Made by a program: the position numbers and the translations under genes. A DNA stretch of 64,000 nucleotides, from the NCBI GenBank assembly GCA_036380875.1, contig DASVDX010000086.1, positions 20,974 to 84,973 of the forward strand, read 5' to 3'. Each line of letters begins with the position of its first letter. Position 1 is the stretch's first letter. Positions 154 through 55,406 of the stretch are shown here, in pieces. This stretch comes from Acidimicrobiia bacterium. GTDB taxonomy: Bacteria > Actinomycetota > Acidimicrobiia > Spongiisociales > ZC4RG35. The notes under the pieces are model-generated. The model made no database searches. It had not been told where the DNA came from and saw only the letters and a program-made list of their open reading frames with translations.

Positions 154-999
154 GTGAGCAGCCGGCTCGTCCTCATCTCCGGAAAGGGAGGGGTCGGGAA
201 GTCGGCGGTTTCGGCCGCGTACGCCCTGGCGGCCCGCCGCCGCGGCGAACGAGTGCTCGCCATCGACATGCTCGATGGCAGCGGCCTCGGGGCCCACCTC
301 GGCGAGCACGACCTGACCTTCAAACCCCGTCCGATCGGCGAAGGGTTGGAAGCGTCGACGATCGACCGGGCCGAAGCGCTCCTCGAGTACCTGCGGGTCC
401 AAGTCGGCATCCCCGCCATCGCCACGATCGGCCCGGCGGCCCGCGCCTTCGACGCCCTCGCCTCGACCGCCCCGGCCATCCGGGAGGTCGTGACGATCGG
501 AAAAGTGCTGTGGGAGGTGAAACGCGGCGTCTGGGACCTGGTGGTCGCCGATGCCGCCCCCACAGGCCAGATCGGGAGCTACCTGCGGGCGGCGCGCACG
601 GTTCGGGAGTTGGTCGCCAGCGGCCGCATCCTCGACCAGGTGGAGTGGATGGAGCAGATCCTCACCGACGCGGAGCGGACCAACCTGGTCCTGGTGACCC
701 TCCCGGAGGAACTGCCGACGGTCGAAACCGCCGAGACGATCGAGTGGATCCGCAACGAGGGAGTGGTCGGCGCCATCACGGTGGTGGCCAACCGGGTGCT
801 TCCTCCGCTCGAAGCCGACGTGCCCGAGAGCGACGGGCCAGTGGCCGAGGCCGCCGCTCTTCACCAGTCGCTGTGGGAGGAGCAGCAGCACTGGCTGTCC
901 CAACTGCCGGTCGACACGTCCCTCCCCTACCTGTTCGGGACACACACTCCGGCAGAGGTGGCTGAGCGCCTCGCCGACTTCCTGGAGGCTGAGGGATGA
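154..999 (+). CDS. ArsA/GET3-family P-loop ATPase (anion-transporting ATPase-like), first of a pair
   Basis: GTG start. N-terminal deviant Walker A motif LISGKGGVGKSAVSAA. Family architecture of the ArsA/Mrp/MinD superfamily. Stop overlaps the start of the next gene (ATGA). Confidence 0.85.
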   Translation: MSSRLVLISGKGGVGKSAVSAAYALAARRRGERVLAIDMLDGSGLGAHLGEHDLTFKPRPIGEGLEASTIDRAEALLEYLRVQVGIPAIATIGPAARAFDALASTAPAIREVVTIGKVLWEVKRGVWDLVVADAAPTGQIGSYLRAARTVRELVASGRILDQVEWMEQILTDAERTNLVLVTLPEELPTVETAETIEWIRNEGVVGAITVVANRVLPPLEADVPESDGPVAEAAALHQSLWEEQQHWLSQLPVDTSLPYLFGTHTPAEVAERLADFLEAEG

Positions 1000-2015
1000 C
1001 CAAGGCGCTGGTGGTCACTGGCGCCGGCGGTGTCGGAAAGACCACCATCTCGGCCGCGTTGGCAGTCACGGCGGCTCGCTCGGGCCTGCGGACGCTGGTC
1101 CTCACCGTCGACCCGGCCCAGAGGCTCAGCACGGCCCTCGGCATCGCCATCGGCAACGAGCCCGAGCCCCATCCCGAGGAACAAGGCCTGTGGGTGGCGA
1201 TGCTCGACGCCACCGCCTCCTGGCAGGAGGTCGTGCGTCGTCACACCGACCCGGAGGTGGCGGAGCGTCTGATCGACAACGAGTTCTTCGCCGCCGCCAC
1301 CTCCCATTTCCCGGCGTCGCAGTCGTTCGCCGCCGCCGAGCAGGCCGCCACCTACATCGACGCCCGGGCATGGGACCTCGTAGTCATCGACACTCCGCCG
1401 GCGGCGGGCGGCATCGACTTCTTCACCGCCCCGGCCCGTATGGCCGACCTGGTCGGCGGGCGGCTCCTGCGATGGCTGACCGGCGCCCGTCTGCCCGGCC
1501 GCCGCTTCCTGTTCGACCGGACGGCCAAGCCGATGCTGCGGCTGGCCGACCAGGTGCTCGGCTCGAACCTCCTGGAGCGAATCGCCGAGTTCTTCATGGA
1601 CCTGCGAACCACCTACGACGGGGTCGCCAAGCGGGCGCGCCAGATAGAACGTCACATGCGGCGGGCGACGACGATCGTCGTCACGACTTCGGACCCCGCC
1701 CCGATGCGGGAGGCGGTCCGCTTCTTCCACGCCCTTCCCGAGGTGGCTTCACCGCCGGCTGCGGTTTTCTTCAACCGCAGCCTCCCGGAGAGCTGGATCG
1801 ATGCCCGGGCTCCCCGTGGCACCGACGCGGCTCTCGCCGCCAACCTGGAACGGTGGGGCGTGGAGTCACAGAAGCAGCGGTCGGCTCGCCGCGAGCTCGG
1901 GGAGCGCCATCGGGTGGCGATCGTCACTGTCCCGTGGCAGCGGCGGCCGCCGACAGACCTCGACTCACTGGCGGAGCTCATCGAGACCGCCGAATCCGTC
2001 CCGCAGTTGTGGTGA
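996..2015 (+). CDS. ArsA/GET3-family P-loop ATPase, second of the pair
   Basis: ATG overlapping the upstream stop. Walker A motif VVTGAGGVGKTTISAA, then DPAQ and DTPP motifs typical of ArsA-like ATPases. Paired arrangement like mycobacterial Rv3679/Rv3680. Confidence 0.85.
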   Translation: MTKALVVTGAGGVGKTTISAALAVTAARSGLRTLVLTVDPAQRLSTALGIAIGNEPEPHPEEQGLWVAMLDATASWQEVVRRHTDPEVAERLIDNEFFAAATSHFPASQSFAAAEQAATYIDARAWDLVVIDTPPAAGGIDFFTAPARMADLVGGRLLRWLTGARLPGRRFLFDRTAKPMLRLADQVLGSNLLERIAEFFMDLRTTYDGVAKRARQIERHMRRATTIVVTTSDPAPMREAVRFFHALPEVASPPAAVFFNRSLPESWIDARAPRGTDAALAANLERWGVESQKQRSARRELGERHRVAIVTVPWQRRPPTDLDSLAELIETAESVPQLW

Positions 2016-41993: not shown

Positions 41994-42909
41994 CGTCGAG
42001 CGACGACACGGCGATCACGTTGGAGCCCCGCACTGTGCGGCGTGCCAGGCCTGCGGTCACGTCCCCTGGGCCCACGTGGACGAAGGTGTCGATGCCCGAT
42101 GCGGCCATCTTCTCGAGTGTTTCCGAGAACCGGACCGGCGAAACGACCTGGTCGACGAGGGTCGGGACGAGATCTTCGCTCGTGACGGGACCTGCCGTCA
42201 CGTTGGAGTAGACCGGGAAGCGTCCCTCTGAGATCTCGACACCTTCGAAGGACGCCGCCAGCCTGTCCGAGGCGGACTGCATGAAGGGGGAATGGAAGGC
42301 GCCGGCGACCGCCAGTCCGACCACTCGGCGCAGCCCGAGCGCGGATGCCTTTTCCTCCAGCCATTCGATGTCGTCGACACCTCCGGCGACGACCACCTGA
42401 CCGGGAGCGTTGATGTTGGCCACCCACAGGCTCCCGCCTTCCGACCGGCGCACGGAGCAGGCGGCTTCCACGACTTCCAGGTCGGCCCCGATCACCGCCG
42501 CCATCGACGACGGGTTGGCATCGGAAGCGTCGGCCATCGCCCGTCCTCGCTCGGCGACGACGGCGAGTGCGTCCGAATACGAGAAGACTCCGGCGGCAGC
42601 CAATGCCGTGTACTCCCCCAGCGAATGCCCGGCGGCGGCGACCGGAGGAGGAACGTGAGCCGAAAGCTCCTCCCAGAGGGCGTACGAGAGTGCGAACAGC
42701 GCCGGCTGGGCGTGTTCGGTGCGGGTCAGCCGCTCCTCGGGCCCTTGGAGACAGACCTCACGGAGTGAGAAGCCGAGCACCTCGTCGGCGGCATCTCCCA
42801 GGAGGTCCGGGCGCGCCTCGAAGAGGTCGGCACCCATGCCCACGAACTGACTCCCCTGGCCGGGGAACAAAACGGCATAACCCATCGGATTGCTTGGACT
42901 CGGAGGCAC
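41953..42909 (-). CDS. fabD: Malonyl CoA-ACP transacylase
   Basis: GQGSQ and the nucleophile motif GHSLGE. GTG at 42909. An internal ATG at 42885 (MGYAV) is also a plausible start. Confidence 0.9.
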   Translation of the reverse strand: MPPSPSNPMGYAVLFPGQGSQFVGMGADLFEARPDLLGDAADEVLGFSLREVCLQGPEERLTRTEHAQPALFALSYALWEELSAHVPPPVAAAGHSLGEYTALAAAGVFSYSDALAVVAERGRAMADASDANPSSMAAVIGADLEVVEAACSVRRSEGGSLWVANINAPGQVVVAGGVDDIEWLEEKASALGLRRVVGLAVAGAFHSPFMQSASDRLAASFEGVEISEGRFPVYSNVTAGPVTSEDLVPTLVDQVVSPVRFSETLEKMAASGIDTFVHVGPGDVTAGLARRTVRGSNVIAVSSLDDVGVATDALGSIS

Positions 42910-43049
42910 CGGCGGAGGTTACCTGGCGCCGTTCCGACCGATATCTCGTCGCTCGTGCGTCGAAGATCGCTGATCATCGAGCCAGTTCGTTCTTCGGCCA
43001 CCGTCGTCCTCTGAGCATTCTTGTCCCAGCCGCGTTGTACGGTCGAGGC

Positions 43050-44354
43050 ATGTTGGGGGAACGACGAGGAAGCACCCGACAGGTGCTCCCCGAGGGGATC
43101 GAGGATCAGGCACCCAGCACCGAGCTCGCCGTCCTCGTCGAATCCATCGACGACACCGATCTGAACGGCTACGAGCTCGTCCTCTATATCCAGGCGATTT
43201 GGAGGCTGTTGGCCCACTTCCAGGCCAAGGCCTATCACGCCATCGTCGAGCTCGCCCACACCCCACCCTGCGACCCCGACGATCCACCAGACCGCACTGA
43301 GGTACCCGACGAGTTCATCCCCGACGAATTGTCGGCTGCGCTCCGCCTGACGAACAAGGCATCCCACATGCACCTCGGCCTGGCCTTCGCCCTGGCACGT
43401 CTGCCGGCGGTCTGGGAAGCATTGCACTCGGGGCGCATCGATATCGCCCGGGCCAAGGTCATCTGTGAGGAGACGACCGAACTCGATGTCGAAGCCGCCC
43501 GGAAGATCGTCTACTGGATCCTCGATCGAGCACCCGAACTGACGACCGGTCAGCTCGGGCGAACGCTCCGCAAGCGAATCATGTCCGAGTATCCGGATGC
43601 AGCGCGCAAGAGGTACAGGCGGGGTGTGGAGGACCGCAAGGTGGAAGCTCGCTCCAACCCCGATGGCACCGCGGACCTCCTTGGCCGCCAGCTGCCGGTT
43701 GAGCGGGTGGGCGGCATCATGAACCGCATCGACGACATCGCCCGGAGGCTCAAACGACAGGGCGACCCGCGCCCGGTCGACCAGATCCGCGCCGACATCT
43801 ACTGCGACTTGCTCGAAGGTCGGAACCTCCCCGCCGTCCGACGCGGCGGCGGAGGCGTCAAGATCAGCGTCGACTTGGAGACCCTCATCGGCTTGGCCGA
43901 CGACCCCGGAGAGGTGGACGGTTGGGGCCCGGTGGTGGCCGACCTCGCTCGTTACGTCGCCCGCCAGAACACCAACGGCACTTGGGAGTTCGAGATCACC
44001 GACCCCGACACCGGTCTCCCCCTCGTCACCGGCACCACGCGGCGGCGACCCACCGCCGAACAACGCCGCTACATCGAGGCCCGAGATCGAACCTGCGTGT
44101 GGCCGACTTGCCCCGTCCCGGCGCACCGATGTCATATCGACCACACCCGCGACCACCATCTGGGCGGGCCGACGCACACTCGCAACCTCGACCCGTTGTG
44201 CCCCCATCACCATCTCGGGTCGAAGCACCGGGCCGGTTGGAAGCTCGAGCAGCCCGCACCGGGAATGTTCGTGTGGACCAGCCCGAGGGGCCACCGGTAC
44301 GTGGTCCGGTCACCGCCCGGGGTAGTGGCCCCTTCCCGGGGCGTTCGTACCTAG
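43050..44354 (+). CDS. DUF222 plus HNH-nuclease domain protein (REP13E12-family-like element)
   Basis: 434 aa. N-terminal DUF222-like helical region. C-terminal HNH core (CVWPTC...HIDHTRDHHLGGPTHTRNLDPLCPHHHLGSKH). Start is the in-frame ATG inside the track ORF 42567..44354. Stop overlaps the convergent isochorismatase gene. Confidence 0.7.
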   Translation: MLGERRGSTRQVLPEGIEDQAPSTELAVLVESIDDTDLNGYELVLYIQAIWRLLAHFQAKAYHAIVELAHTPPCDPDDPPDRTEVPDEFIPDELSAALRLTNKASHMHLGLAFALARLPAVWEALHSGRIDIARAKVICEETTELDVEAARKIVYWILDRAPELTTGQLGRTLRKRIMSEYPDAARKRYRRGVEDRKVEARSNPDGTADLLGRQLPVERVGGIMNRIDDIARRLKRQGDPRPVDQIRADIYCDLLEGRNLPAVRRGGGGVKISVDLETLIGLADDPGEVDGWGPVVADLARYVARQNTNGTWEFEITDPDTGLPLVTGTTRRRPTAEQRRYIEARDRTCVWPTCPVPAHRCHIDHTRDHHLGGPTHTRNLDPLCPHHHLGSKHRAGWKLEQPAPGMFVWTSPRGHRYVVRSPPGVVAPSRGVRT

Positions 44355-44902
44355 AAGACGTCCGCCGCTTCGACGACCTCGGCGTTGTAGAACGTCGTGA
44401 GATAGGAAAGCGCCTCGCGCTGGAACCGGTCGTATTCACCGTCGGTCAGCGGTTCGAACACGCAGGTGCCGTCCGAGACCACCGCCAATTCGATCCCCCG
44501 GCGAAAGGCGTCGTAGCTCGTGTGACGGCAACAGCAATTCGTGTGTTGACCGACGATCACCATCCGCTCGATCTGCTGGACACGGCACGTGGCATCCAGG
44601 TCGGTGTCGGTGAACGCCGAGTAGAACCGCTTGGGTACGACGATGTCGCCTTCCGCCGGTGCCAACTCCGGGATCACCTCGGCGCCCGTCGAGCCGGCCA
44701 AAGCGTGCTCACCGAACACGGCGAACTCGAGGTCGTTGGGCTGGTGGGCGTCGTTGGCGTAGACGACGACCCAGTCGTCCCGGGTACGGGCTTCTTCGAC
44801 GAGATGGGCGATCGGGTCGATGATCTCCTTGGCGGCCGGATTGGCCAGGGTCCCGTCGACGAAGTCGTTGAGCATGTCGAGGATCACGAGTGCCGTCTTC
44901 AT
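44351..44902 (-). CDS. Isochorismatase-family cysteine hydrolase
   Basis: D/K/C catalytic triad context (ALVILDMLNDF ... VVPKRFYSAF ... VIVGQHTNCCC). Start at MKTAL inside the track ORF. Confidence 0.8.
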   Translation of the reverse strand: MKTALVILDMLNDFVDGTLANPAAKEIIDPIAHLVEEARTRDDWVVVYANDAHQPNDLEFAVFGEHALAGSTGAEVIPELAPAEGDIVVPKRFYSAFTDTDLDATCRVQQIERMVIVGQHTNCCCRHTSYDAFRRGIELAVVSDGTCVFEPLTDGEYDRFQREALSYLTTFYNAEVVEAADVF

Positions 44903-44981
44903 CGGCTTCCTCCAGTAGTGGGCATCCGAGGCCATTGTCGTCGCTGGCCGGGGACTGCGCACAGGGACCGATGAAAAACGG

Positions 44982-46016
44982 TCAGTCCTGCGAGATCCCC
45001 GCCACGAGACGATCGACGTCCGCTCTGTCTACGTCGCGATGGGTGACGAGGCGCCACCACCCCGCCGCCGGAGCCCCGGTGATCACCCCGTTGTTCCCGA
45101 GCCGCTCCCGTATCGCCCCGATGGAGTCGGGCAGACCGGCCACGTCGACCCGCACCATGTTCGTCTCGACGGTCGTGGGGTCGACCGCTTCGGGCCAGCG
45201 TTCCGCCAACTGCTCGGCGAGATAGCGGGCGAGCTCGTGATCCTCGGCCAGCCGCTCCCGGTCCCGCAGGGCGATCCGGGCGGCGGCGGCGATGACTCCC
45301 ACCTGCCGCATGCCACCCCCGAGGCGCTTGCGGAGGTACCGGACCTCGTCCATGAGGTCGGCGGGTCCGCAGACGATCGACCCGATGGGAGCACCGAGAC
45401 CCTTCGAGAAGCAGAACTGGATGGTGTCGGCCGTCGCCGCGAACTCGGCGGCCTTCGTGCCGGTGGCCGCTTCGGCGTTGAAGATGCGGGCACCGTCGAT
45501 GTGGACCCGCAGGCCGCGTTCCCGGGCTCTCGCCGACGTCTCGGCCATCACCTCGAGAGGGATGACTCTCCCGCCGGACAGGTTGTGGGTGTTCTCCCAG
45601 GCGAGGAGCGAAACCCGGGGGAACATCGAACCGGCGAGCTCCATCACTGTGTCGACCTGCTCAGGGGTGATCTGGCCGCCGTCGGTCGAAACGGTGCGCC
45701 AGCCGATGCCGGCGTGGGCTGGGCCCCAGCCTCTTTCGACGTTGCGGATGTGGGCGAACTCGTCGACCAGTACCTCCTCACCGGGACGCGTCTGGGCCAT
45801 CACTGCGAGTTGGTTGCCCATCGTGCCGGTGGGGACGAAGACCGCCGCCTCTTTTCCGACCACCGAAGCGGCATCTTCCTCCAAGGCGTTGGCGGTCGGG
45901 TCGTCGGCGTACACGTCGTCGCCGACTGCCGCCTCGGCCATGGCCCGGCGCATGTCCTCGGTCGGGCGTGTGACCGTGTCGGACCGGAAGTCGGCGGTGC
46001 CGTCAGAGAACGCCAT
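44982..46016 (-). CDS. ltaE: Low-specificity L-threonine aldolase
   Basis: PLP fold-type I. N-terminal [10 protein letters not shown] and the PLP-lysine region [13 protein letters not shown]. Confidence 0.85.
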
Positions 46017-46025
46017 GAGCGGCGA

Positions 46026-47204
46026 TCAGAGCCCTTGCAGGGCCCGGCGGAGGGAGCGGCAGGCCTGTCCGATCCGGTGCTCGTTCTCGACGAGGGCGAA
46101 GCGCACGAACCCCTCCCCTGCGTCGCCGAAGCCGATACCCGGCGAGACCGCCACCTTGGCGTGTTCTAGGAGATGGAAGGAGAACTCGAGGGAGCCCATG
46201 TGGACGTAGGGGTCGGGGATCGGCGCCCACACGAACATCGTGCCCTTGGGCGGCTCCACCTTCCAGCCGGCCCGATCGAGGCCTTCCATCAGGGCGTCGC
46301 GTCGACGGCGGTAGATCTCGTTGACTTCTGTGACGTATTCGTCCTCTTCGTTGAGGGCGATGATCGAGGCGATCTGGATCGGCTGGAACGTGCCGTAGTC
46401 GAGGTAGGACTTGAGCTTTCCCAACGCGGCTACCGCTTCGGGGTTCCCGACGACGAACCCAACACGCCAGCCCGCCATCGAGTGGCCCTTGGTGAGCGTG
46501 TAGAGCTCGACGGCGACCTCCTTCGCCCCCGGCACCTCGAGGATCGACGGGGGCACGTACCCATCGAACGCCACGTCGGCATAGGCGAAGTCGTGAACCA
46601 GGAACACCCCGTTGTCGTGGGCGAAAGACACCAGTCGCTCGAAGAACGGCAGGTCGACGCAGATCGTCGTCGGGTTGTGCGGGAAGGAGATGATGATCAC
46701 CCGCGGTTTCGGCCACGAGTCCCGGAAGACCTTCTCGAGCAACTCGAAGTAGTCCTCTTCGGGCGTGACCGGCACCTTGCGGATCTCGGCCCCGGCCAGC
46801 ACCGGCGCATAGATGTGGATCGGATACGAGGGGTCGGGGACGATGGCGGCGTCCCCCGGCTGCACCAGCGTCCACATCAGGTGCGCCAAACCTTCCTTCG
46901 CTCCGATGGTGTTGATGACCTCGGTGTCCGGGTCGAGCTCCACCCCGAACCGACGGGCGTACCGGTCGGCTACCGCCTTGCGCAGGTTGGGCAGCCCGCG
47001 GGAGGCCGAATAGCGATGGTTGCGGGGGTTTCGGGCGGCTTCCACGAGCTTCTCCACCACCTTCGGCGGGCTCGGGATGTCGGGGTTGCCGAAACCCAAG
47101 TCGACGATGTCGTCACCCGACCGGCGAGCGGCGAGCTTCCGTTCGTTCACCAGCCCGAAGACATAGGGCGGCAGGTGCTCGATCCGGCGAAATTCCATCT
47201 CCAC
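46026..47204 (-). CDS. Class I/II PLP-dependent aminotransferase (AlaA/AspC-like)
   Basis: SFPHNPTT, the PLP-lysine motif [16 protein letters not shown], and the overall AAT-I architecture. Confidence 0.85.
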
Positions 47205-47217
47205 CAGAGTAGAACGC

Positions 47218-47640
47218 TCACCCAGAAAGCCGGTCGACCCACCGCTTCAACGGAGGCGGCACCAACTGGGCGGTGGCGTCGAGCACGGTCTGGACCATGT
47301 CGAGCAGGTCGGCGGGACCATCCCAATGGCTCATCACCACTTCCTCCCCTGCCTTCCGGAGGAGGTGGTCGACGGCGAAAACGAGCAGCAGGACGTCGTC
47401 GACCTTGCCCAACCCAGGAATGAAATCGGGGATGAAGTCGACCGGCGAGACGAGATAGGCGAGCATCCCGCCTACGAGCAGCTTGGAGCGCCGTGGGACC
47501 CGCGGGTCGCGGACCAACCGGGTGAGGAGCTTCACCAGGTTGGGAATGAGGAGCACGATGTCGGCGAGAAGTGACTTGAGCTGCAGTCCCCCGCCTCCTT
47601 CGGGAGGGATGATCTCGTCGGGTCGGATCGAATCACTCAT
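47218..47640 (-). CDS. DUF1232 (YkvA-like) membrane protein
   Basis: 140 aa. Conserved [10 protein letters not shown]...[18 protein letters not shown] block. ATGA overlap with the glucokinase stop. The track ORF 47218..48564 overextends antisense through the glucokinase gene. Confidence 0.6.
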
Positions 47641-48515
47641 TGGGTTTCCTCCAGAGCAGCAACGGCGGCTCCGATGGCGCCTGCTTCCTGTCCCAAGGCA
47701 CTGGGGACCATCTTCGCCAGGGGACGATGCCCGGCGCCTTCCGTTACCGACAATCGACGGCGTACCGGGTCGAGGAGGAGGTCGCCGGCCCCTGCCGCCG
47801 CTCCGCCGACGACGATCACGTCGGGGTCGAGGGCCAACACCAGTGTCTCGATGCCGACGGCCAGCCACTCCCCGGCCTCGGTGATCCGGGCGATGGCTTT
47901 TTCGTCGCCACCGAGGGCGGCTTCCACGAGGTCCTCGGCCTTGGCTTCGGGGCCGAGCAGTTCCCGGGCGTCGGCGCCGAAGCGGGTGCCGGAGACCTTC
48001 GTCTCCCAACAGCCGCGTCGGCCGCAGGCGCATTGGTCGCCGTTGGTGTCGATGGTGATGTGGCCGACCTCGCCGGCATGGCCACGGCCCCGGTACACCT
48101 GGCCGCCCAGCACTGCGCCCATGCCGATGCCGGTGCCGAGCGTGATCATCAGCATGTGCTCGGCACCCTTCCCGGCCCCCAGCCGGTGCTCGGCGAGCGC
48201 CGCCATGTTGGCGTCGTTGTCGACCGTGACCGGGACCCCCAGCTTCTCCATGAGCGGCCGGCGGAAGTCCACGGCCGTGCCCGGCAGGTGAGGGGCCCAC
48301 ACGAGCTGGCCGGCCTCGTGGTCGACGAGCCCGGCCAGGCCCAGCCCGAGAGGGAGGCCGGCGCCGAGTTCGGTGGCGACGGAGGCGACGGCTCCGATGA
48401 TCTCGGAGGGATCGGCAGGCGTCGGCCGCCGCGTCCGTGACACGATCTCCCGGTTGGAGTCGAGACGCACGGCCTTGACGAAAGTCCCTCCGACGTCGAC
48501 CCCGACGGCGCTCAT
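47637..48515 (-). CDS. ROK-family glucokinase
   Basis: N-terminal VGVDVGGT ATPase motif. ROK signature and zinc cysteines (CACGRRGCWE). Confidence 0.85.
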   Translation of the reverse strand: MSAVGVDVGGTFVKAVRLDSNREIVSRTRRPTPADPSEIIGAVASVATELGAGLPLGLGLAGLVDHEAGQLVWAPHLPGTAVDFRRPLMEKLGVPVTVDNDANMAALAEHRLGAGKGAEHMLMITLGTGIGMGAVLGGQVYRGRGHAGEVGHITIDTNGDQCACGRRGCWETKVSGTRFGADARELLGPEAKAEDLVEAALGGDEKAIARITEAGEWLAVGIETLVLALDPDVIVVGGAAAGAGDLLLDPVRRRLSVTEGAGHRPLAKMVPSALGQEAGAIGAAVAALEETQ

Positions 48516-48703
48516 TCGATCTCGATCCGTTCCCGGCGCGGGGCGCCGTCGTCGGCGGGCTCATCGGAGTCGTGACGCAGGTGGGAGAGTTCCTCGATCA
48601 CTGCTTCGAGGGCCCTGACGCTCTCGATGCCGGCCTTGAGCAGGTGGATCATCGCCCGCTGGGCAGCGCGCTTCAGGGCTTCGACGGTTTCGGCATCGGT
48701 CAT
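48512..48703 (-). CDS. Small helical hypothetical protein (63 aa), translationally coupled on both sides
   Basis: 4-nt overlaps with both ArsA-HSP20 (upstream) and the glucokinase gene (downstream). No known motif. Confidence 0.4.
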   Translation of the reverse strand: MTDAETVEALKRAAQRAMIHLLKAGIESVRALEAVIEELSHLRHDSDEPADDGAPRRERIEIE

Positions 48704-49875
48704 GACACTTCTCCGAAGCGTATGGACAGCACGCCATCGGCCAGCTTCGCCCCCTCCACCTGCCTGCGGTGGAGGCTGTCGGGAAGCACGAAGGAGCGTC
48801 GGTATGGGCCGACCTGGATGAAGAGCTCGTTCCCGTGGCGGTAGACGTCGAGTTCGCCCTTCTCTGCGAAGGGCACCGTCATCTCGAGGACCACCGCCCT
48901 GTCGAGGTCCTCCACGCGGAACGGGCTGCGGGCCTGGAAGTCCCGGATCGGGTCGGCGTCCCCGTAGAGCTCCTCGGCCATCGTCCTCAGCTTCGTCACG
49001 CCCACCATCTCCTCGTCGAAGAGGCGGAGGCGAAGCCGGGGGACGTCGGCGAAAGCGGCGTCGACCGTGTCGAGATGCGATTTCTGGATCGTGCGCCAGC
49101 GGGAGAAGTACGGGTCGGAGACCTGGTCCGGAAGCACGCGGTTCACGATCACCCCGTCGACGCCGTAGCCGAACAGGGACAGGTACGTGTATGTGCGGCG
49201 CGCTTCGTCGATCACCATCTTCTCGGGGTTGACGACAAGCCGGGCCGAGGTTACTTCGGGATTGGCGAGCAGTTCTTTGACCTGTTCGATGCCGGTGAAG
49301 ACGGTGGTGGCGGCGTCGAACACGCCCTCTTCGGGCACGGGCAGGTCCGTGACTCGGGTCAGCAGGGGTCGGGCGGCGCGAAGGATGCGCCTTTCGGTGG
49401 GCAGGATCCGCTCGAAGTACCAGGAGAGCACCTCGGGCAAGGACAGGAGGCGAAGCGTTTCGGCGGTGGGGGCGCAGTCGACGACGACGGCGTCGTATTC
49501 ACCCGACCGAGCGTGGCGGTTGACCTCGAGCAGGGCGAATAGCTCGTCCATTCCCGGGAACACCAAGAACTCCTCCGCCTCGAGACCCGACACACCACCC
49601 CAGTCGAGGACGTTCATCAGCTGGTCGCGGATGGCCCCCCAGTACCTGTCGAGCTGACGTTGAGTGTCGATCTGCTGGCCGAACAGGTTGGGGGCCACCT
49701 CGATCGGATCGTCAGCCAGGCCCACGTCGAAGGCGTCGGCGAGTGAGTGAGCCGGGTCGGTCGACGAGATGAGTGTGCGATGTCCCGCATCGGCGGCAGC
49801 GAGGGCGGTGGCGGCGGCGACGGTGGTCTTGCCGACTCCACCTTTGCCCGTCACCAGGACGATGCGCACGGACAT
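48700..49875 (-). CDS. ArsA-family ATPase fused to a C-terminal HSP20-like (ArsA_HSP20) domain
   Basis: Walker A LVTGKGGVGKTTVAAA, then the DPAHSL and DCAPT motifs. C-terminal beta-sandwich-like segment (ELDVYRHGNELFIQVGPYRRSFVLPDSL...GVLSIRFGE). Confidence 0.8.
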   Translation of the reverse strand: MSVRIVLVTGKGGVGKTTVAAATALAAADAGHRTLISSTDPAHSLADAFDVGLADDPIEVAPNLFGQQIDTQRQLDRYWGAIRDQLMNVLDWGGVSGLEAEEFLVFPGMDELFALLEVNRHARSGEYDAVVVDCAPTAETLRLLSLPEVLSWYFERILPTERRILRAARPLLTRVTDLPVPEEGVFDAATTVFTGIEQVKELLANPEVTSARLVVNPEKMVIDEARRTYTYLSLFGYGVDGVIVNRVLPDQVSDPYFSRWRTIQKSHLDTVDAAFADVPRLRLRLFDEEMVGVTKLRTMAEELYGDADPIRDFQARSPFRVEDLDRAVVLEMTVPFAEKGELDVYRHGNELFIQVGPYRRSFVLPDSLHRRQVEGAKLADGVLSIRFGEVS

Positions 49876-49877
49876 CG

Positions 49878-50333
49878 TCAGGTCGAGCGTTCTTGCACGC
49901 GTCTGCGCAGTCCTCGCAGGGCGGTGGTGACGATCTGCTTCTCGGCTTGGCGACGGACGAACCCCGGAAGCACGAAGGACGGGACGACGGACAGTGCGTA
50001 GACGACCTCGGTCACCCCGTCTCCGGTCTCGGTGAACGTGTACGAGCCTTCGAGCATGGCGATGTCGGGGCTCGGATCAGCCTTCCACGACATCCGGTGG
50101 GGCGGGTCGTAGTCGTAGACCAGCTCGTAGGAGATCTCTTTGACGAAGCCTTCGAGCACGAACGCCGCCCTGTGCGGCCGGCCCTCGGAATCCCTCTCGA
50201 GAACCTCGACCCGCTTCACACCCGACGCCCACTCGGGATAGGACTCCACGTCGGCCGCCACCTCGAAACAGGCGGCGGCGGGGGCGTCGATCTCGATCGA
50301 ATGGACTGTGCTCTCTGCCATCGCCGGTTGCAT
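49878..50333 (-). CDS. SRPBCC-superfamily (polyketide cyclase/START-like) protein
   Basis: About 150-aa fold signature (HSIEIDAPAAACFEVAADVESYPEWA...). First gene of the operon. Confidence 0.7.
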   Translation of the reverse strand: MQPAMAESTVHSIEIDAPAAACFEVAADVESYPEWASGVKRVEVLERDSEGRPHRAAFVLEGFVKEISYELVYDYDPPHRMSWKADPSPDIAMLEGSYTFTETGDGVTEVVYALSVVPSFVLPGFVRRQAEKQIVTTALRGLRRRVQERST

Positions 50334-50398
50334 TCCTCCTAATCGTACTCTCTGCTCGCGAGTTGCTAACGGCTGTATGCGCCGCGCAAACGGGGCGG

Positions 50399-51178
50399 TC
50401 AGCTAGCGATGGCAGCTGCCGGATCGAAGCGAAACGCCCGTCGCGTGGCTCGAAAGTAGCCGACGTTCAGGCACAGGGTCGACCCCACTCGCCACCGGGT
50501 GGCCTGCGGCTGGTGGATGTCGCCGAACAGGTGGAACCGGGGGCGATGCTCGAGGATGTAGTCGAGGATCGGCCGGGACGAGCGTTCCAGTCGACCGGTT
50601 ATCACGTCGTAGTGGAGGGGGCGGACGGCGGGCGACAGATGGGTACAGAGCACGTCCACCGAACCGATCCGGGAGAGTTTCTCGGCCATCTCCTGGTCGG
50701 TGACCTCTCCCCGGCCCCGGCTGGGCGTTGCGATCCCTCCACCGGCGAATCCGAACGTGAAGCCGTCTATCTCGACGACTTCCCCGTCGACGAACCGCAT
50801 CCCCTCGGGCAGAGATTCGGCCAGCAGGTCGGGCGTGTCGACGTTGCCATACGTTGCGTATCCGGTCGCTCCGGCGATGGCCTCTCGGAAGGCGGCGTAT
50901 TGCTTCTCGATCTGGTCCCTCATCGCCGCCCGCAGCTCTTCGGCGCGGCCCGCCATCCCCTGCTCCCACAGCTCTCGCATCGCCTCGTAGTCGGAGTCAC
51001 CCCGGTGCTGGGAGACCCGCCGGCCGAAGTCCTCCCCCATGACGTCGGAGATGATCCCCTCGCCGGTGCGGTAATCGATGAGGTTGATGACGTCGCCGAG
51101 GATCAGAAGAGTCTCGCCGGTCGCGATCAGCCGGGCCAGGGCGTCGAACTCGCCGTGCACGTCGGAGACGACGAGCAC
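50399..51178 (-). CDS. Metallophosphoesterase (calcineurin-like)
   Basis: Metal-ligand motifs VVSDVHGEF, GDVIN and GDIHQP. GTG start 2 nt after the upstream stop. The track ORF 50399..51448 overextends. Confidence 0.7.
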   Translation of the reverse strand: MLVVSDVHGEFDALARLIATGETLLILGDVINLIDYRTGEGIISDVMGEDFGRRVSQHRGDSDYEAMRELWEQGMAGRAEELRAAMRDQIEKQYAAFREAIAGATGYATYGNVDTPDLLAESLPEGMRFVDGEVVEIDGFTFGFAGGGIATPSRGRGEVTDQEMAEKLSRIGSVDVLCTHLSPAVRPLHYDVITGRLERSSRPILDYILEHRPRFHLFGDIHQPQATRWRVGSTLCLNVGYFRATRRAFRFDPAAAIAS

Positions 51179-51180
51179 GC

Positions 51181-51501
51181 CTAGCCGGTCTCCGTTTCCG
51201 CGGTGGCGGCCGCCGGGTCGTCGTGGCCCGTCCACCCGACGTACCAGACGGCGGCAGCCGCACCGATGAGCGCCAACACCAGCGCCAGCGGCCAGGGGAT
51301 GCCGAGAGGCGAGAACTCGGCGGACATTCCGGCCATCCCGAAGCCGACCATGCCCGCCACCACCCGGCGGCCGACAAGCCCGAACCTCTCCTCGGGATCG
51401 ATGGCGGGACGCTCGATGTTCACCGCGAACGACCGAGCGATCAGCCAAGCGAACAAGGCGACTACCCCGACGACGAGGACTGAGGCGTAGACCTTGACCA
51501 C
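51181..51501 (-). CDS. Small two-TM membrane protein, hypothetical
   Basis: 106 aa, two hydrophobic helices. Tightly linked upstream of the metallophosphoesterase. Confidence 0.45.
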   Translation of the reverse strand: MVKVYASVLVVGVVALFAWLIARSFAVNIERPAIDPEERFGLVGRRVVAGMVGFGMAGMSAEFSPLGIPWPLALVLALIGAAAAVWYVGWTGHDDPAAATAETETG

Positions 51502-51538
51502 GATCTGAGCTTAGGACCGGGCGCGGCCGGAGCCTGCC

Positions 51539-53206
51539 TCAGCTCGTGACGGCGCCGTGCTCGGCCGAACCCACCAGGCGGGCGTACTTGGCCAGCGCCC
51601 CTGTCGTGTAACGCGGCTCGTGGGGCTTCCAATTGGCACGCCGCTCCGCCAGCGTCTCCTCGTCGACCATCAGGTCGAGTGTGCGGGTCGAAAGACGCAC
51701 TCGGATGGTGTCCCCGTCCTGCACCAAGCCGATGGGCCCGCCCACCTCCGACTCGGGTGCCACGTGGCCGATGCACAGGCCGGTCGTGCCGCCAGAGAAT
51801 CGCCCGTCGGTCACGAGCAGCACCTCTTTCCCCAGCCCGGCGCCTTTGATGGCGGCGGTGATCTGGAGCATCTCCCGCATGCCAGGGCCGCCCTTGGGCC
51901 CTTCGGTGCGGATCACGACCACGTCGCCGGGCCGGATCTGGTGGTTGAAGAGCGCCTCGAGAGCCGCCTGCTCCCCCTCGAAGACCCGGGCCGGGCCTTC
52001 GAACTCGTCGAGTTCGATGCCCGCCACCTTCACGACGGCGCCCTGCGGAGCGAGCGTGCCCCGGAGGACGGCGATCCCGCCCTCGGAGGCGATCGGGCTC
52101 TGCGGCGGGTAGATCACGTCCTGATCTTCGGGGAACACCACGTCGGCGACGTTCTCGGCGAGCGTCTTGCCGGTGACGGTCAGGACGTCGCCGTGGAGCA
52201 GACCCTCGTCGAGCAGCGCCTTGAGCACCACCGGCACCCCGCCGATCCGGTCCAGATCGACCATGTGATAGCGGCCGAAAGGCTTCAAGTCGCCGATGTG
52301 GGGTGTGCGACGGCTGATGCGGTCGAAGTCCTCTAGCTCCAACTCGACGCCGGCCTCGTGGGCGATGGCCATCAGGTGGAGGACGGCGTTGGTGGAGCCG
52401 CCGAGGGCCATGACGGTGGTGATGGCGTTCTCGAACGCCGGGCGGGTCATGATCTGGCGGGGACGGATCCCCTCGTCCAAGAGACGCATGGCAGTTTCGC
52501 CGGACTGACGGGCATACTCCCGCAGCCGGTGGTCGACCGCCGGGACCGACGCCGACCCGGGAAGCGACATGCCGATCGCCTCACCGACCGAGGCCATGGT
52601 GTTGGCGGTGAACATGCCGGCGCAGGACCCGGCGCCGGGGCAGGCGCTTCGCTCCAACTCGAGCAGGTCGGATTCCTCGATCCGGCCCTCGGACAGGGCG
52701 CCGATCCCCTCGAACACGTCCACGATGGAGATGTCGCGTCCCCGATAGCGGCCGGGGAGGCTGGACCCGCCGTAGAGGAACACCGCCGGCAGGTTGAGGC
52801 GGGCCGCCGCCATGAGCATGCCGGGAAGCGACTTGTCGCAGCCGGCGATGGTGACCATGGCGTCGAACCGCTCGGCGTGCATCACCAGCTCGACCGAGTC
52901 GGCGATGACTTCCCGGGACACGAGAGAAGCGCGCATGCCTTCGTGTCCCATCGAGATGCCGTCGGACACGGCGATGGTGGCGAACGTGAGGCCCACTCCC
53001 CCGGCCTCGATCACCCCTTGTTTCGCTGCAGCCGCCAACTCGGGGCCGCTGAGGTTGCACGGCGTCACCTCGTTGCCGGCCGACACCACTCCCACCTGCG
53101 GTTTGGCGAAGTCCTCGTCGCTGAGGCCCACCGCCCGGAGCATGGCTCTCGCCGCGGCCTTCGCAGGACCTTCGGTCACATCCTGGGAGTGGATCTTGTG
53201 GGTCAT
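51539..53206 (-). CDS. ilvD: Dihydroxy-acid dehydratase
   Basis: ILVD/EDD signatures including CDKxxP ([10 protein letters not shown]) and SDGRFSGGT. Start taken at [13 protein letters not shown] by comparison with actinobacterial IlvD. The track ATG at 53296 is the alternative. Confidence 0.92.
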
Positions 53207-53286
53207 GGACGTGATGATATGGTGCCCGGACGGAGTGCGGTCCGCCGCGACCCTATCCTCGGGCTTTCGACCATCCATCACCTCTT

Positions 53287-55406
53287 TTGCTGTCACACAT
53301 CCCTGTCCTGAACCACCTCGAATATCCCGTGCCTCGATCTTTCGATCGGGTAGTCGACATCGCCCACAACCTGTGGTGGACCTGGCACGACGCCGGGCAG
53401 GCGCTGTGGTCGGCCATCGACCCCGACCAGTGGGAAGAGACCCACAACCCGATGGACATCCTCCACCACACCGAGCGCCACCGCTGGATGGAACTGGAGA
53501 AGCGCGAGACCGTTCAGGAGCGTTACCGGGAAGCGGTCAGGCGCTTCGACGAGTACCTGACCGATGAGGACACCTGGTACAACCGCCGCGGCGGCGGCCT
53601 CGAGGGGCCAGTCGCCTATCTGTGCACCGAGTTCGGCGTCCACAACACCATTCCTCTCTACTCGGGAGGGCTGGGGATCCTCGCCGGCGACCATCTCAAG
53701 TCGGCGTCCGATCTCGGTATCCCCCTCGTCGGCGTCGGCCTGTTCTACCGCCGTGGCTATTTCCGCCAGGAGATCGACGCCGACGGCGATCAGCAGCACA
53801 TCTCGCCGGTCCTCGACGAGCACCGCCTCCCGATGGCGCCCGTGGCGGCGCCAGGTGGCGGTCAGCTGCAGGTCGAGATCGAACTGCCAGGACGTTCGCT
53901 CACGGTGGCGGCGTGGCGACTGGCCGTGGGCCGGGTGCCGCTGATCCTCCTGGACACGGACCTCCCCGAAAACGATCCGGCCGACCGGCCGATCACCCAC
54001 ACGCTGTACGTCCGGGGCCGGGAGATGCGCTTCCTGCAGGAACTGGTGCTGGGTGTCGGCGCCGTCCGGGTACTCGACGCCCTCGGACTGGAGCCGGCGG
54101 TGTGGCACGCCAATGAGGGTCATGCCGCCTTGTCGGTGATCGAACGGGCCGCCCAACTGGTCGAAGGTGGCTCCACCCTCGAGGAAGCCCGGGAGACGAT
54201 CCGCCGCCGGACGGTCTTCACCTTGCACACCCCGGTGCCGGCCGGCAACGAGACGTTCGAGCGGGCGATCCCCGACAAGTACCTGCCGCCTTGGGCGGCC
54301 CGGCTGGGCGTCGACATGGCCGGCCTGGGCGAGCTCGCCCGGTCCCACGATCCCCACTACTTCGACATGGGGGCGCTGGCCATCAGATTCGCGTCCTTCG
54401 TCAACGGCGTCTCGCAACGCCACGGCGAGGTGGTCACCCGGGACTGGTCGTGGCTCATCGGCCACGGGGCCGAGGCGATCACCAACGGTGTCCATCCGCC
54501 GACGTGGATGGGACGGGGGGCGTCACGTCTGCTCCGCAGCCGCTTCGGCGACGAGTGGGCCGAGTACCTGCTCGAGAACCCCGAGGAGCTGAAGCTCATC
54601 GACGCCCTCTCGAGCGACGAGCTGTGGAACCTGCACCAGGTGCGAAAAGAGGTGCTCGTGACCTTCGTTCGGGGCCGGCTCCAGCGACAGATCGCCCGTC
54701 ACGGCGGAAGCCCCGACGATCTGCGAGCCGTGGAGCGTCTCCTGTCTCCCGACGTGCTCACGCTGGGTTTCGCCCGCCGGTTCGCAACCTACAAGCGGGC
54801 GACGCTCATGTTCCGCGACGTAGACCGCCTCACCTCGATAGTCGCCAGCGACGCCCGGCCGATCCAGTTGGTGTTCGCCGGCAAGGCCCATCCCGCCGAC
54901 GACCACGGCCAGGCGCTGATCCGCCACCTGGTCGAACTGTCCCGCACCCCGGGGCTGGCTGGCCGCCTCTTCGTGGTCGAGGACTACGACGCCCGGATGG
55001 CCCGCTTCCTCGTGCAGGGCTGTGACGTCTGGGTCAACAACCCGCGCCCGCCGATGGAGGCGTCCGCACGTCGGGGATGAAGGCGGCGATGAACGGAGTC
55101 CTCAACCTGTCGGTGCTCGACGGTTGGTGGGCCGAGGGATACGACGGCGAGAACGGTTGGGCGTTCGGGCACGCCGATCCGAGCGACGACTACGAAGCGT
55201 CCGACCGTCACGACGCCGACGACTTCTACCGGGTGCTCGCCGACGAGGTGGCGCCGCTCTACTACGAGCGGGATTCCGACGGCATCCCCCACGCGTGGGT
55301 GGAGAGGATGCGTCGTTCCATCGCCTCGTCGCTGGTCCGATTCTCCTCCCACCGGATGGTGGCCGAGTACCTGGAGCGCGCCTACCTGCCGCTCGGCCGC
55401 GGCTGA
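53287..55406 (+). pseudogene. glgP: Alpha-1,4-glucan (maltodextrin/glycogen) phosphorylase, GT35, interrupted by a -1 frameshift
   Basis: Track ORF 53287..55080 ends ...VNNPRPPMEASARRG*. Track ORF 55077..55406 (frame +2) starts MKAAMNGVLNLSVLDGWWAEGY. Restoring one G in tccg^cacg near 55066 gives the universal EASGTSGMK PLP-lysine motif in a single frame. Confidence 0.75.

Follow-up and report, generated by a model that had tools for sequence, protein, structure and literature searches.

Strict pairing of a crystallin-domain Get3/ArsA ATPase gene with a gene for a small tail-bearing protein in Acidimicrobiia

Locus and gene organization

The locus described here lies in a 64,000-nucleotide stretch of DNA from an Acidimicrobiia bacterium (contig DASVDX010000086.1, positions 20,974 to 84,973, assembly GCA_036380875.1; the window), which has a G+C content of about 67% and whose closest public relatives are metagenome-assembled genomes (MAGs) of the Acidimicrobiia. 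It centers on a minus-strand gene for a protein of 63 residues, termed here the mini-protein, and on the gene directly before it, which encodes an ATPase of the Get3/ArsA type with a C-terminal α-crystallin domain (αCD).

In the direction of transcription the minus strand carries genes for an SRPBCC protein (49878-50333; 151 aa; Pfam Polyketide_cyc2, E=2e-17; AGGAGG ribosome-binding site upstream), the ATPase (48700-49875; 391 aa; ArsA_ATPase, 6.9e-88; ArsA_HSP20, 2.3e-19, residues 328-387), the mini-protein (48512-48703; 63 aa plus stop; no match in Pfam or NCBIfam), a ROK sugar kinase (47637-48515; 292 aa; Pfam ROK, 1.1e-61) and a small DUF1232 membrane protein (47218-47640; 140 aa; Pfam, 3.4e-14; two or three hydrophobic segments in the hydropathy profile). 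The open reading frames (ORFs) and Pfam assignments agree with the first-pass annotation of this DNA on all five genes. The junctions of 2 to 4 nt that it gave were read again from the sequence and are correct: SRPBCC and ATPase genes meet at TGAcgATG, with a 2-nt spacer, and the ATPase/mini-protein, mini-protein/ROK and ROK/DUF1232 junctions are each an ATGA with a 4-nt overlap. The ATPase had been counted as the fourth ArsA-family member of the window; tblastn and an ArsA hidden Markov model (HMM) run against all window ORFs found three such genes only, and it is the third. From the sequence, the genes of the cluster are probably co-transcribed and co-translated.

Conservation of the mini-protein gene

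A scan of one genome per species provided 80 reference loci, the best ArsA_HSP20 relatives of the window gene (71-93% ArsA identity), all of them in Acidimicrobiia-type MAGs. A mini-protein homolog of 56-65 aa follows ArsA_HSP20 directly in 80/80 loci; in 75 of these its start and the ArsA stop overlap (ATGA-type in 61, 1-nt in 14). Five distant members of the family were checked on their contigs (ArsA 60-71% identical where readable). Four come after an SRPBCC-ArsA_HSP20 pair; the fifth lies at a contig end that cuts the upstream gene, so that the mini-protein stands behind ArsA_HSP20 in 4/4 distant loci with a readable upstream gene. Conservation of the small ORF beside ArsA_HSP20, which the first-pass annotation had named as the test of its proposal, is therefore seen in all 80 related loci, and proteins of the same design occupy this place in actinomycetes, Bacillus and two other lineages.

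The small ORF is a real gene under purifying selection, not a chance ORF of high-GC DNA, because its GC content by codon position (0.75/0.41/0.81) is comparable to that of its neighbors, the differences among 81 orthologs fall mostly at codon position 3, and synonymous single-base codon changes (49,395) exceed non-synonymous ones (29,301). It could still be supposed that the gene order simply records shared ancestry in one class and that the small ORF is functionally unconnected with its neighbors, as would suit a set of 80 closely similar loci drawn wholly from Acidimicrobiia-type MAGs. The retained stop-start overlap and the selection on the ORF speak against this, and the recurrence of arrangement and tail in Actinomycetes, Bacillota and two other lineages, where ArsA identity is 37-43%, largely refutes it because it crosses phyla; the supposition is given a negligible probability.

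A word-indexed profile search with the mini-protein returned 858 clusters, all of about 62 aa and carrying neither a name nor a Pfam domain. When 1.84 billion representatives were searched exhaustively with HMMER, only 41 mini-protein clusters came back, all of 38-100 aa, none of which has the mini-protein fused to another domain. No natural ArsA-mini-protein fusion occurs among the 120 ArsA homologs listed, all close relatives. Pfam, NCBIfam and lax Pfam scans of 28 representatives gave no family assignment. Even without any idea of docking, the mini-proteins stand as a well-supported new gene family that obeys a strict gene-neighbor rule.

Structure of the mini-protein and its tail

The mini-protein is predicted by AlphaFold2 (AF2) to form one long amphipathic α-helix over residues 3-47 (48563-48697, minus strand), with a predicted local distance difference test score (pLDDT) above 90 to about residue 40. 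In the alignment, R12, A13, R16, H20, A24, E27, A31 and E38 form a conserved stripe on the helix beside a hydrophobic seam. An acidic linker of variable length and sequence follows (residues 48-58; 48530-48562, minus strand; pLDDT 54-66, predicted to be disordered), and the chain ends in R-I-E-I-E-COOH (residues 59-63; 48515-48529, minus strand), a Φ-x-Φ-[D/E] motif of the IXI type known from small heat shock proteins (sHSPs). The tail [IVL]-x-[IVL]-[DE]-COOH is present in 86/86 mini-proteins, as against 2 of the 403 stop-to-stop ORFs of the window. RIEIE is its most frequent form; RIEVE, KIEIE, RIDIE, HIPVE and similar variants also occur.

In sHSPs the β4/β8 groove of a neighboring crystallin domain receives a C-terminal I-x-I/V motif, also in trans, and the same groove of crystallin domains is bound by the IPV motifs of BAG3. 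The mini-protein resembles the sHSPs in having a Φ-x-Φ motif that closes the chain behind a flexible linker, and Methanocaldococcus jannaschii HSP16.5 (1SHS) ends in KKGINIE-COOH, that is, in the same I-x-I-E-COOH. It differs from them in that a polypeptide of its own carries the motif and that an ATPase is fused to the crystallin domain. One distant mini-protein (locus L085, 4184-4435) has two tandem tail motifs (RQRIDVE ADDEGPQ RIPVD), a doubling that fits a tail acting as a short linear binding motif.

The ATPase

The ATPase domain of the Get3/ArsA type comprises residues 1-309 (48949-49875, minus strand) and the αCD, or HSP20-like domain, residues 310-391 (48703-48948, minus strand; seven-strand β-domain; PF17886, 2.3e-19). 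Family scores are 295 bits for PF02374 (cutoff 24.3) and 258 bits for TIGR00345 (cutoff 135). The P-loop GKGGVGKT, switch I STDPAHS and switch II DCAPTAET are invariant in 86 sequences, in which Asn245 and an A-loop-like segment LRLFDEEMVG are also conserved; switch II departs from the canonical DTAPTGH at its final two positions. The CXXC zinc motif is absent from the ATPase, whose sole cysteine, C134, lies in switch II. The AF2 model (pLDDT 81.6, predicted template modeling score 0.82) has a Get3 fold followed by a β-domain with strands at 320-387. The chain stops directly after the last αCD strand, and the αCD is left without a C-terminal extension of its own. Profile scores, the AF2 model and fold matches uphold the placement of the protein in the Get3/TRC40/ArsA family with an α-crystallin-type domain, as the first-pass annotation had it.

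The best fold match is archaeal Get3 (3zq6, 34% identity, Foldseek). Full-length alignments with structures of the Protein Data Bank (PDB) were obtained only with NosGet3d (8egk, 3igf) and AtGet3d (8elf), over 392-427 columns at 21-25% identity, and the NCBIfam model NosAFP aligned at residues 5-387 with 156.3 bits (cutoff 325). Get3d was described by Barlow et al. in 2023 from Nostoc (All4481) and Arabidopsis and is linked to photosynthesis; the role of its αCD was stated to be unclear and its partners unknown (PMC10248533). The αCD of Get3d lacks the features of sHSP oligomerization and packs against the ATPase dimer (PMC10248533). AtGet3d and NosGet3d have lost the A-loop and replaced the Asn of β7, while some bacterial Get3d proteins retain both (PMC10248533). 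The ArsA-HSP20 fusion is not new; it is already known as PF17886 and matches the Get3d architecture, for which structures have been solved (PMC10248533).

The window ATPase shares with Get3d a single Get3/ArsA domain, a C-terminal PF17886 αCD and the lack of the CXXC zinc motif. It differs in its low identity to Get3d and its score under the NosAFP cutoff, in an ATPase domain nearer to archaeal Get3, and in keeping Asn245 and the A-loop-like segment that AtGet3d and NosGet3d have lost. Its host is an Acidimicrobiia MAG, whereas Get3d is linked to photosynthesis, and it has a coupled small partner gene, whereas Get3d has no described partner. The Acidimicrobiia are not known as a photosynthetic class. 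Judged from sequence and model, the protein has the Get3d architecture with a complete active site, in an unexpected host.

Archaeal and eukaryotic Get3 (TRC40; 3zq6 and the yeast protein) are the best sequence and fold match of the ATPase domain and have the deviant Walker A, switch I and II, and A-loop in common with it; the window protein differs from them in lacking CXXC, which in canonical Get3 coordinates zinc where the two subunits of the dimer meet, and in carrying the extra αCD. Canonical Get3 takes up the transmembrane helix of tail-anchored proteins and hands it to a receptor of the Get1/2 type. No homologs of Get1, Get2, Get4 or Get5 were identified, and the DUF1232 protein is a candidate membrane partner of the ATPase.

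The two other ArsA_ATPase genes of the window (154-999 and 996-2015, plus strand) form an adjacent pair with a 4-nt overlap and without a crystallin domain. They are comparable to the mycobacterial BagA/BagB pair (Rv3679/Rv3680, PDB 6bs3), which shares the ArsA/Get3 fold with the window ATPase but lacks the αCD and a small tail protein and resembles it weakly (NCBIfam 55-58 bits; cutoffs 400-521). The pair at 154-2015 is followed by a convergent gene. An identification of the αCD-bearing ATPase as the arsenite pump ArsA was rejected: the protein has one domain in 391 aa whereas the pump consists of two fused ATPase halves with about 580 aa in all, TIGR04291 scored 112.6 bits (cutoff 650), and the conserved neighborhood holds no arsB or arsD.

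Small proteins behind ArsA_HSP20 in other lineages

Distant ArsA_HSP20 loci were searched for in a plasmid collection that includes some whole chromosomes. Nonomuraea gerenzanensis (ArsA 43% identical) has genes for metallophosphoesterase, SRPBCC, ArsA_HSP20, a 145-aa protein and ROK glucokinase, in this order; the 145-aa protein belongs to Pfam DUF5304 (PF17230, E=1.4e-7), and tblastn with a DUF5304 protein in the plasmid collection found Nonomuraea only. Five actinomycete metagenome loci have the same order, with the DUF5304 start overlapping the ArsA stop in three. DUF5304 proteins are built of an N-terminal helix, the sequence EYICRACPxCR, a helix HLMAAGGELFAAFRGALDAL, a charged linker and the tail VE[HR]IDL[DGN]-COOH. 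They share with the mini-protein the slot after ArsA_HSP20, the frequent overlap with its stop, and the design of H-L-x-x-A-G-x-E-L helix, charged linker and C-terminal V-E-[HR]-I-D-L-[DGN]. They differ in length (137-190 aa versus 56-65 aa) and in the N-terminal helix and EYICRACPxCR, which are missing from all mini-proteins.

In profile-profile comparison (hhalign), mini-protein positions 15-62 aligned with DUF5304 positions 81-144 (E=2.5e-5, probability 75%); with the lone Nonomuraea DUF5304 sequence in place of the family profile, the match to the mini-protein profile fell short of significance (E=0.026), and the DUF5304 HMM matched none of the 28 mini-protein representatives even at E<=10. 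The protein described at first as an orphan without a recognizable domain indeed has no Pfam or NCBIfam match, but the profiles point to a remote, minimal relative of DUF5304. EYICRACPxCR (CxxCxxC) is invariant in actinomycete DUF5304 (L086, 7165-7602, and L088-L095); the ArsA_HSP20 ATPases lack the CXXC of Get3. Relative to DUF5304, the mini-protein has lost the cysteines and kept the His. The DUF5304 partner might supply a metal site in trans. No papers on DUF5304 (PF17230) or DUF3926 (PF13080) were found.

In locus L098, from a further lineage, a 77-aa protein follows and overlaps ArsA_HSP20, contains HLTKAKIELLEAFKSLIEERI and ends in KKIEVE; the flanking genes, judged from their ORFs, are Lon-like and KdsB-like. 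This protein is matched by the mini-protein profile (E=2e-5) and by DUF5304 (E=5e-4), and the three hhalign comparisons meet on the same H-L-x-x-A-x-x-E-L helix. In L099 and L102 a Cys-rich protein of 74 aa begins 3 nt past the ArsA_HSP20 stop and has the tail VPVD; it resembles the mini-protein weakly (E=0.019).

In the Bacillus cereus group the place is taken by DUF3926 (PF13080), a protein of 63 aa with an 8-nt overlap with the ArsA_HSP20 stop and the end KSIVIE, followed by an HXXEE membrane protein. DUF3926 resembles the mini-protein in its 63 aa, in its overlap with the ArsA stop, in the K-S-I-V-I-E-COOH tail and in the small membrane protein next to it. It differs in having a MarR gene upstream and no SRPBCC, ROK or DUF1232 neighbors, and in lacking detectable sequence similarity. 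The MarR regulator encoded directly upstream of ArsA_HSP20 itself ends in KNIPIE-COOH (L087, 4356-4838; L104, 2355-2837) and may also be read by the crystallin domain.

The pairing of αCD-bearing Get3/ArsA ATPases with small tail proteins of one design is strict and coupled at the gene level. ArsA pairs that lack the αCD (window 154-2015; L103) have no small tail protein next door. The tail might nevertheless be read by something other than the αCD, as a ligand of tetratricopeptide repeat (TPR) co-chaperones like EEVD, as a degron or as a tag, with the mini-protein acting as an adaptor or client through its helix. The tails of Hsp70 and Hsp90 are IEEVD and MEEVD, and the mini-protein tail resembles them in being strictly carboxy-terminal with alternating acidic and hydrophobic residues; the KNIPIE end of the Bacillus MarR regulator also suggests a shared reader. 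Against another reader stand the lack of any conserved TPR or protease gene in the clusters examined, the αCD-bearing ATPase as the only feature common to all lineages with tail proteins, and the ArsA pairs in which αCD and tail protein are both missing. This alternative is considered improbable.

Conserved and variable neighbors

Farther upstream on the minus strand lie genes for a calcineurin-like metallophosphoesterase (50399-51178; 259 aa; motifs VSDVHG, GD..N and GDIH) and a membrane protein with two hydrophobic segments by hydropathy (51181-51501; 106 aa; without Pfam family). The membrane protein gene precedes that of the phosphoesterase by 2 nt, and 65 nt separate the latter from SRPBCC. 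The phosphoesterase scores slightly below both Pfam cutoffs (Metallophos_2, 23.2 bits; Metallophos, 20.9 bits), while its Nonomuraea ortholog is above the cutoff. Both the 80 loci and those of the actinomycetes have the phosphoesterase gene upstream of SRPBCC, and the 106-aa protein is encoded upstream of the cluster in nearly all 80 loci (tblastn). SRPBCC is immediately upstream of ArsA_HSP20 in 79/80 loci, about 2 kb upstream in L073, and also directly upstream in actinomycetes. The constant set of the Acidimicrobiia consists of metallophosphoesterase, SRPBCC, ArsA_HSP20, mini-protein and DUF1232, and the conserved cluster is larger than the five genes first described: their tight packing is confirmed, and the array goes further in both directions, upstream to 51501 and downstream to an aminotransferase gene.

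NCBIfam gives SRPBCC a weak match to the toxin family of Rv0910 (E=9.6e-5, 22 bits), which could be taken to indicate a toxin-antitoxin or regulatory pair, with the small protein as antitoxin and the ATPase unrelated. The score is far under the cutoff of 100, the ATPase gene lies between the two supposed partners with the small gene coupled to its stop, the cluster is a syntenic housekeeping context and not a mobile element, and Bacillus, L098 and L099 retain the small protein without SRPBCC. A toxin-antitoxin system was rejected on score and gene order and has a minimal probability.

The ROK kinase has DVGGT near its N-terminus, CACGRRGC at residue 162 and no helix-turn-helix or other DNA-binding domain; with TIGR00744 it scores 177 bits, under the glucokinase subfamily cutoff of 260. 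ROK is present in 38/80 loci, and in the 42 that lack it DUF1232 stands directly behind the mini-protein in 40. The linkage of the module to a sugar kinase, one of the points of the first-pass annotation, thus holds to the extent that a ROK glucokinase recurs in the actinomycetes, but with 42 of 80 loci lacking it the kinase is not part of an invariant core.

The mini-protein might serve the glucokinase, modulating its activity, glucose uptake or carbon catabolite control in the manner of Streptomyces SCO2127, with the slot after ArsA merely inherited. The actinomycete DUF5304 gene is directly upstream of the ROK glucokinase gene, and in the window the mini-protein stop overlaps the ROK start. 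SCO2127, the gene upstream of glkA, is reportedly tied to the activity of glucose kinase and to catabolite repression; the glk gene of Streptomyces coelicolor is SCO2126, and by its position SCO2127 is probably a DUF5304 protein. The literature yielded nothing useful on SCO2128, SCO2129 and SCO2130 and list mentions only on Rv2184c, which belongs to the Mycobacterium tuberculosis genes Rv2185c-Rv2184c-Rv2183c, a possibly orthologous cluster. A role with the kinase has to contend with the 42 Acidimicrobiia loci that couple mini-protein and ArsA stop in the absence of ROK and with Bacillus, L098 and L099, in which the tail protein follows ArsA_HSP20 and no ROK is nearby. The invariant neighbor is the ATPase, not the kinase, and such a role is unlikely.

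Other features of the region

The aminotransferase start lies 13 nt beyond DUF1232, and threonine aldolase and isochorismatase genes follow on the same strand. Eleven co-directional minus-strand genes with short gaps thereby extend over 44351-53296, in the order IlvD, membrane protein, phosphoesterase, SRPBCC, ArsA_HSP20, mini-protein, ROK, DUF1232, aminotransferase, threonine aldolase and isochorismatase. IlvD is upstream solely in ROK-containing loci (34/38 versus 0/42). The array is closed by a plus-strand ORF of 595 aa (42567-44354) that resembles DUF222/13E12-type proteins and has an HNH-nuclease-like C-terminus (CHIDH…GGPT…NL..LC..HH).

A search of 43000-54000 against Rfam gave no match. 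Scanning for promoters and terminators turned up nothing promoter-like and a single weak terminator-like site, located within the aminotransferase gene; shuffled sequence gave more sites. In L081 and L082 (6253-6672, minus strand) and on the contig that carries P0269, a convergent small heat shock gene (PF00011) lies right after the mini-protein. Such an sHSP neighbor was rejected as a general feature; it occurs in one distant actinobacterial lineage only and is absent from the window and the 80 loci. The literature on DUF1232 consists of incidental mentions only.

Proposed function

That the mini-protein serves the ATPase as a true functional partner, in whatever form, is quite probable. A narrower proposal, that it is a dedicated subunit whose tail docks on the αCD as the IXI motif of sHSPs does, is tentative and has somewhat less than an even chance. 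From the comparisons above we infer physical binding, a docking site and a regulatory effect, as follows. Translational coupling would keep synthesis of the mini-protein in step with that of the ATPase, and the mini-protein tail would settle into the β4/β8 edge groove of the αCD as a β-strand. The candidate tail ligand peptide for the αCD (residues 310-391) is DGAPRRERIEIE. The mini-protein would thus be a C-terminal extension supplied in trans to an αCD that has none. In the GET pathway, partners of Get3 bind through helices at the dimer. The docked tail would tether the mini-protein helix near the ATPase dimer, in the region of Get4-Get3 binding and of the αCD in Get3d, and the conserved Arg/His/Glu face of the helix could adjust the hydrolysis of ATP, the opening and closing of the dimer, or the transfer of clients. 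SRPBCC, a fold for hydrophobic ligands, the metallophosphoesterase and DUF1232 may be actinobacterial accessories that suggest a hydrophobic cargo or a membrane destination, and the ROK kinase may be a lineage-variable passenger or a client. A chaperone or targeting machine, the function suggested in the first-pass annotation, may be what these sequence features indicate.

Several observations weigh against the docked-subunit proposal. In the mutual information between ArsA and mini-protein columns of 86 pairs, clade markers dominate and the αCD is not enriched (12 of the 60 highest pairs, versus 51 of 149 variable columns). Because the αCD of Get3d packs on the dimer and lacks sHSP oligomerization features (PMC10248533), the β4/β8 groove may be blocked or modified. 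Most of the synteny evidence is from one class, the Acidimicrobiia, and its counts are inflated by shared ancestry. DUF3926 has no significant similarity to the mini-protein profile (hhalign E=0.075) and is linked to it by position and design only. Finally, Fusobacterium vincentii (L105, 1736-2926 and 2923-4089) has tandem, overlapping ArsA_HSP20 genes with no small ORF after them, so that the small partner is not universal; this pair is possibly a heterodimeric variant that needs no partner.

The design may also be read more widely, helix-linker-Φ-x-Φ-[D/E] proteins being a general partner of the αCD-bearing bacterial Get3 ATPases, with the αCD reading the tail. This is a doubtful extension. 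The set would comprise the Acidimicrobiia mini-protein, actinomycete DUF5304/SCO2127, Bacillus DUF3926 and unnamed relatives, and the pairing might reach the cyanobacterial and chloroplast Get3d proteins. If true, such proteins would form a bacterial co-factor system for Get3, which in actinomycetes would link a Get3-like chaperone with the glucokinase-dependent carbon catabolite control that is ascribed to SCO2127.

The new element at this locus is the conserved small tail-bearing partner; the kind of ATPase was already known. The locus bears on two questions about Get3d, the purpose of its crystallin domain and the identity of its partners (PMC10248533). It gives DUF5304 and DUF3926 a genomic context and a possible biochemical role, and by inference it would connect the puzzling SCO2127 of Streptomyces to a Get3-like ATPase. 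For this poorly understood chaperone or targeting ATPase, the mini-protein is the first candidate partner.

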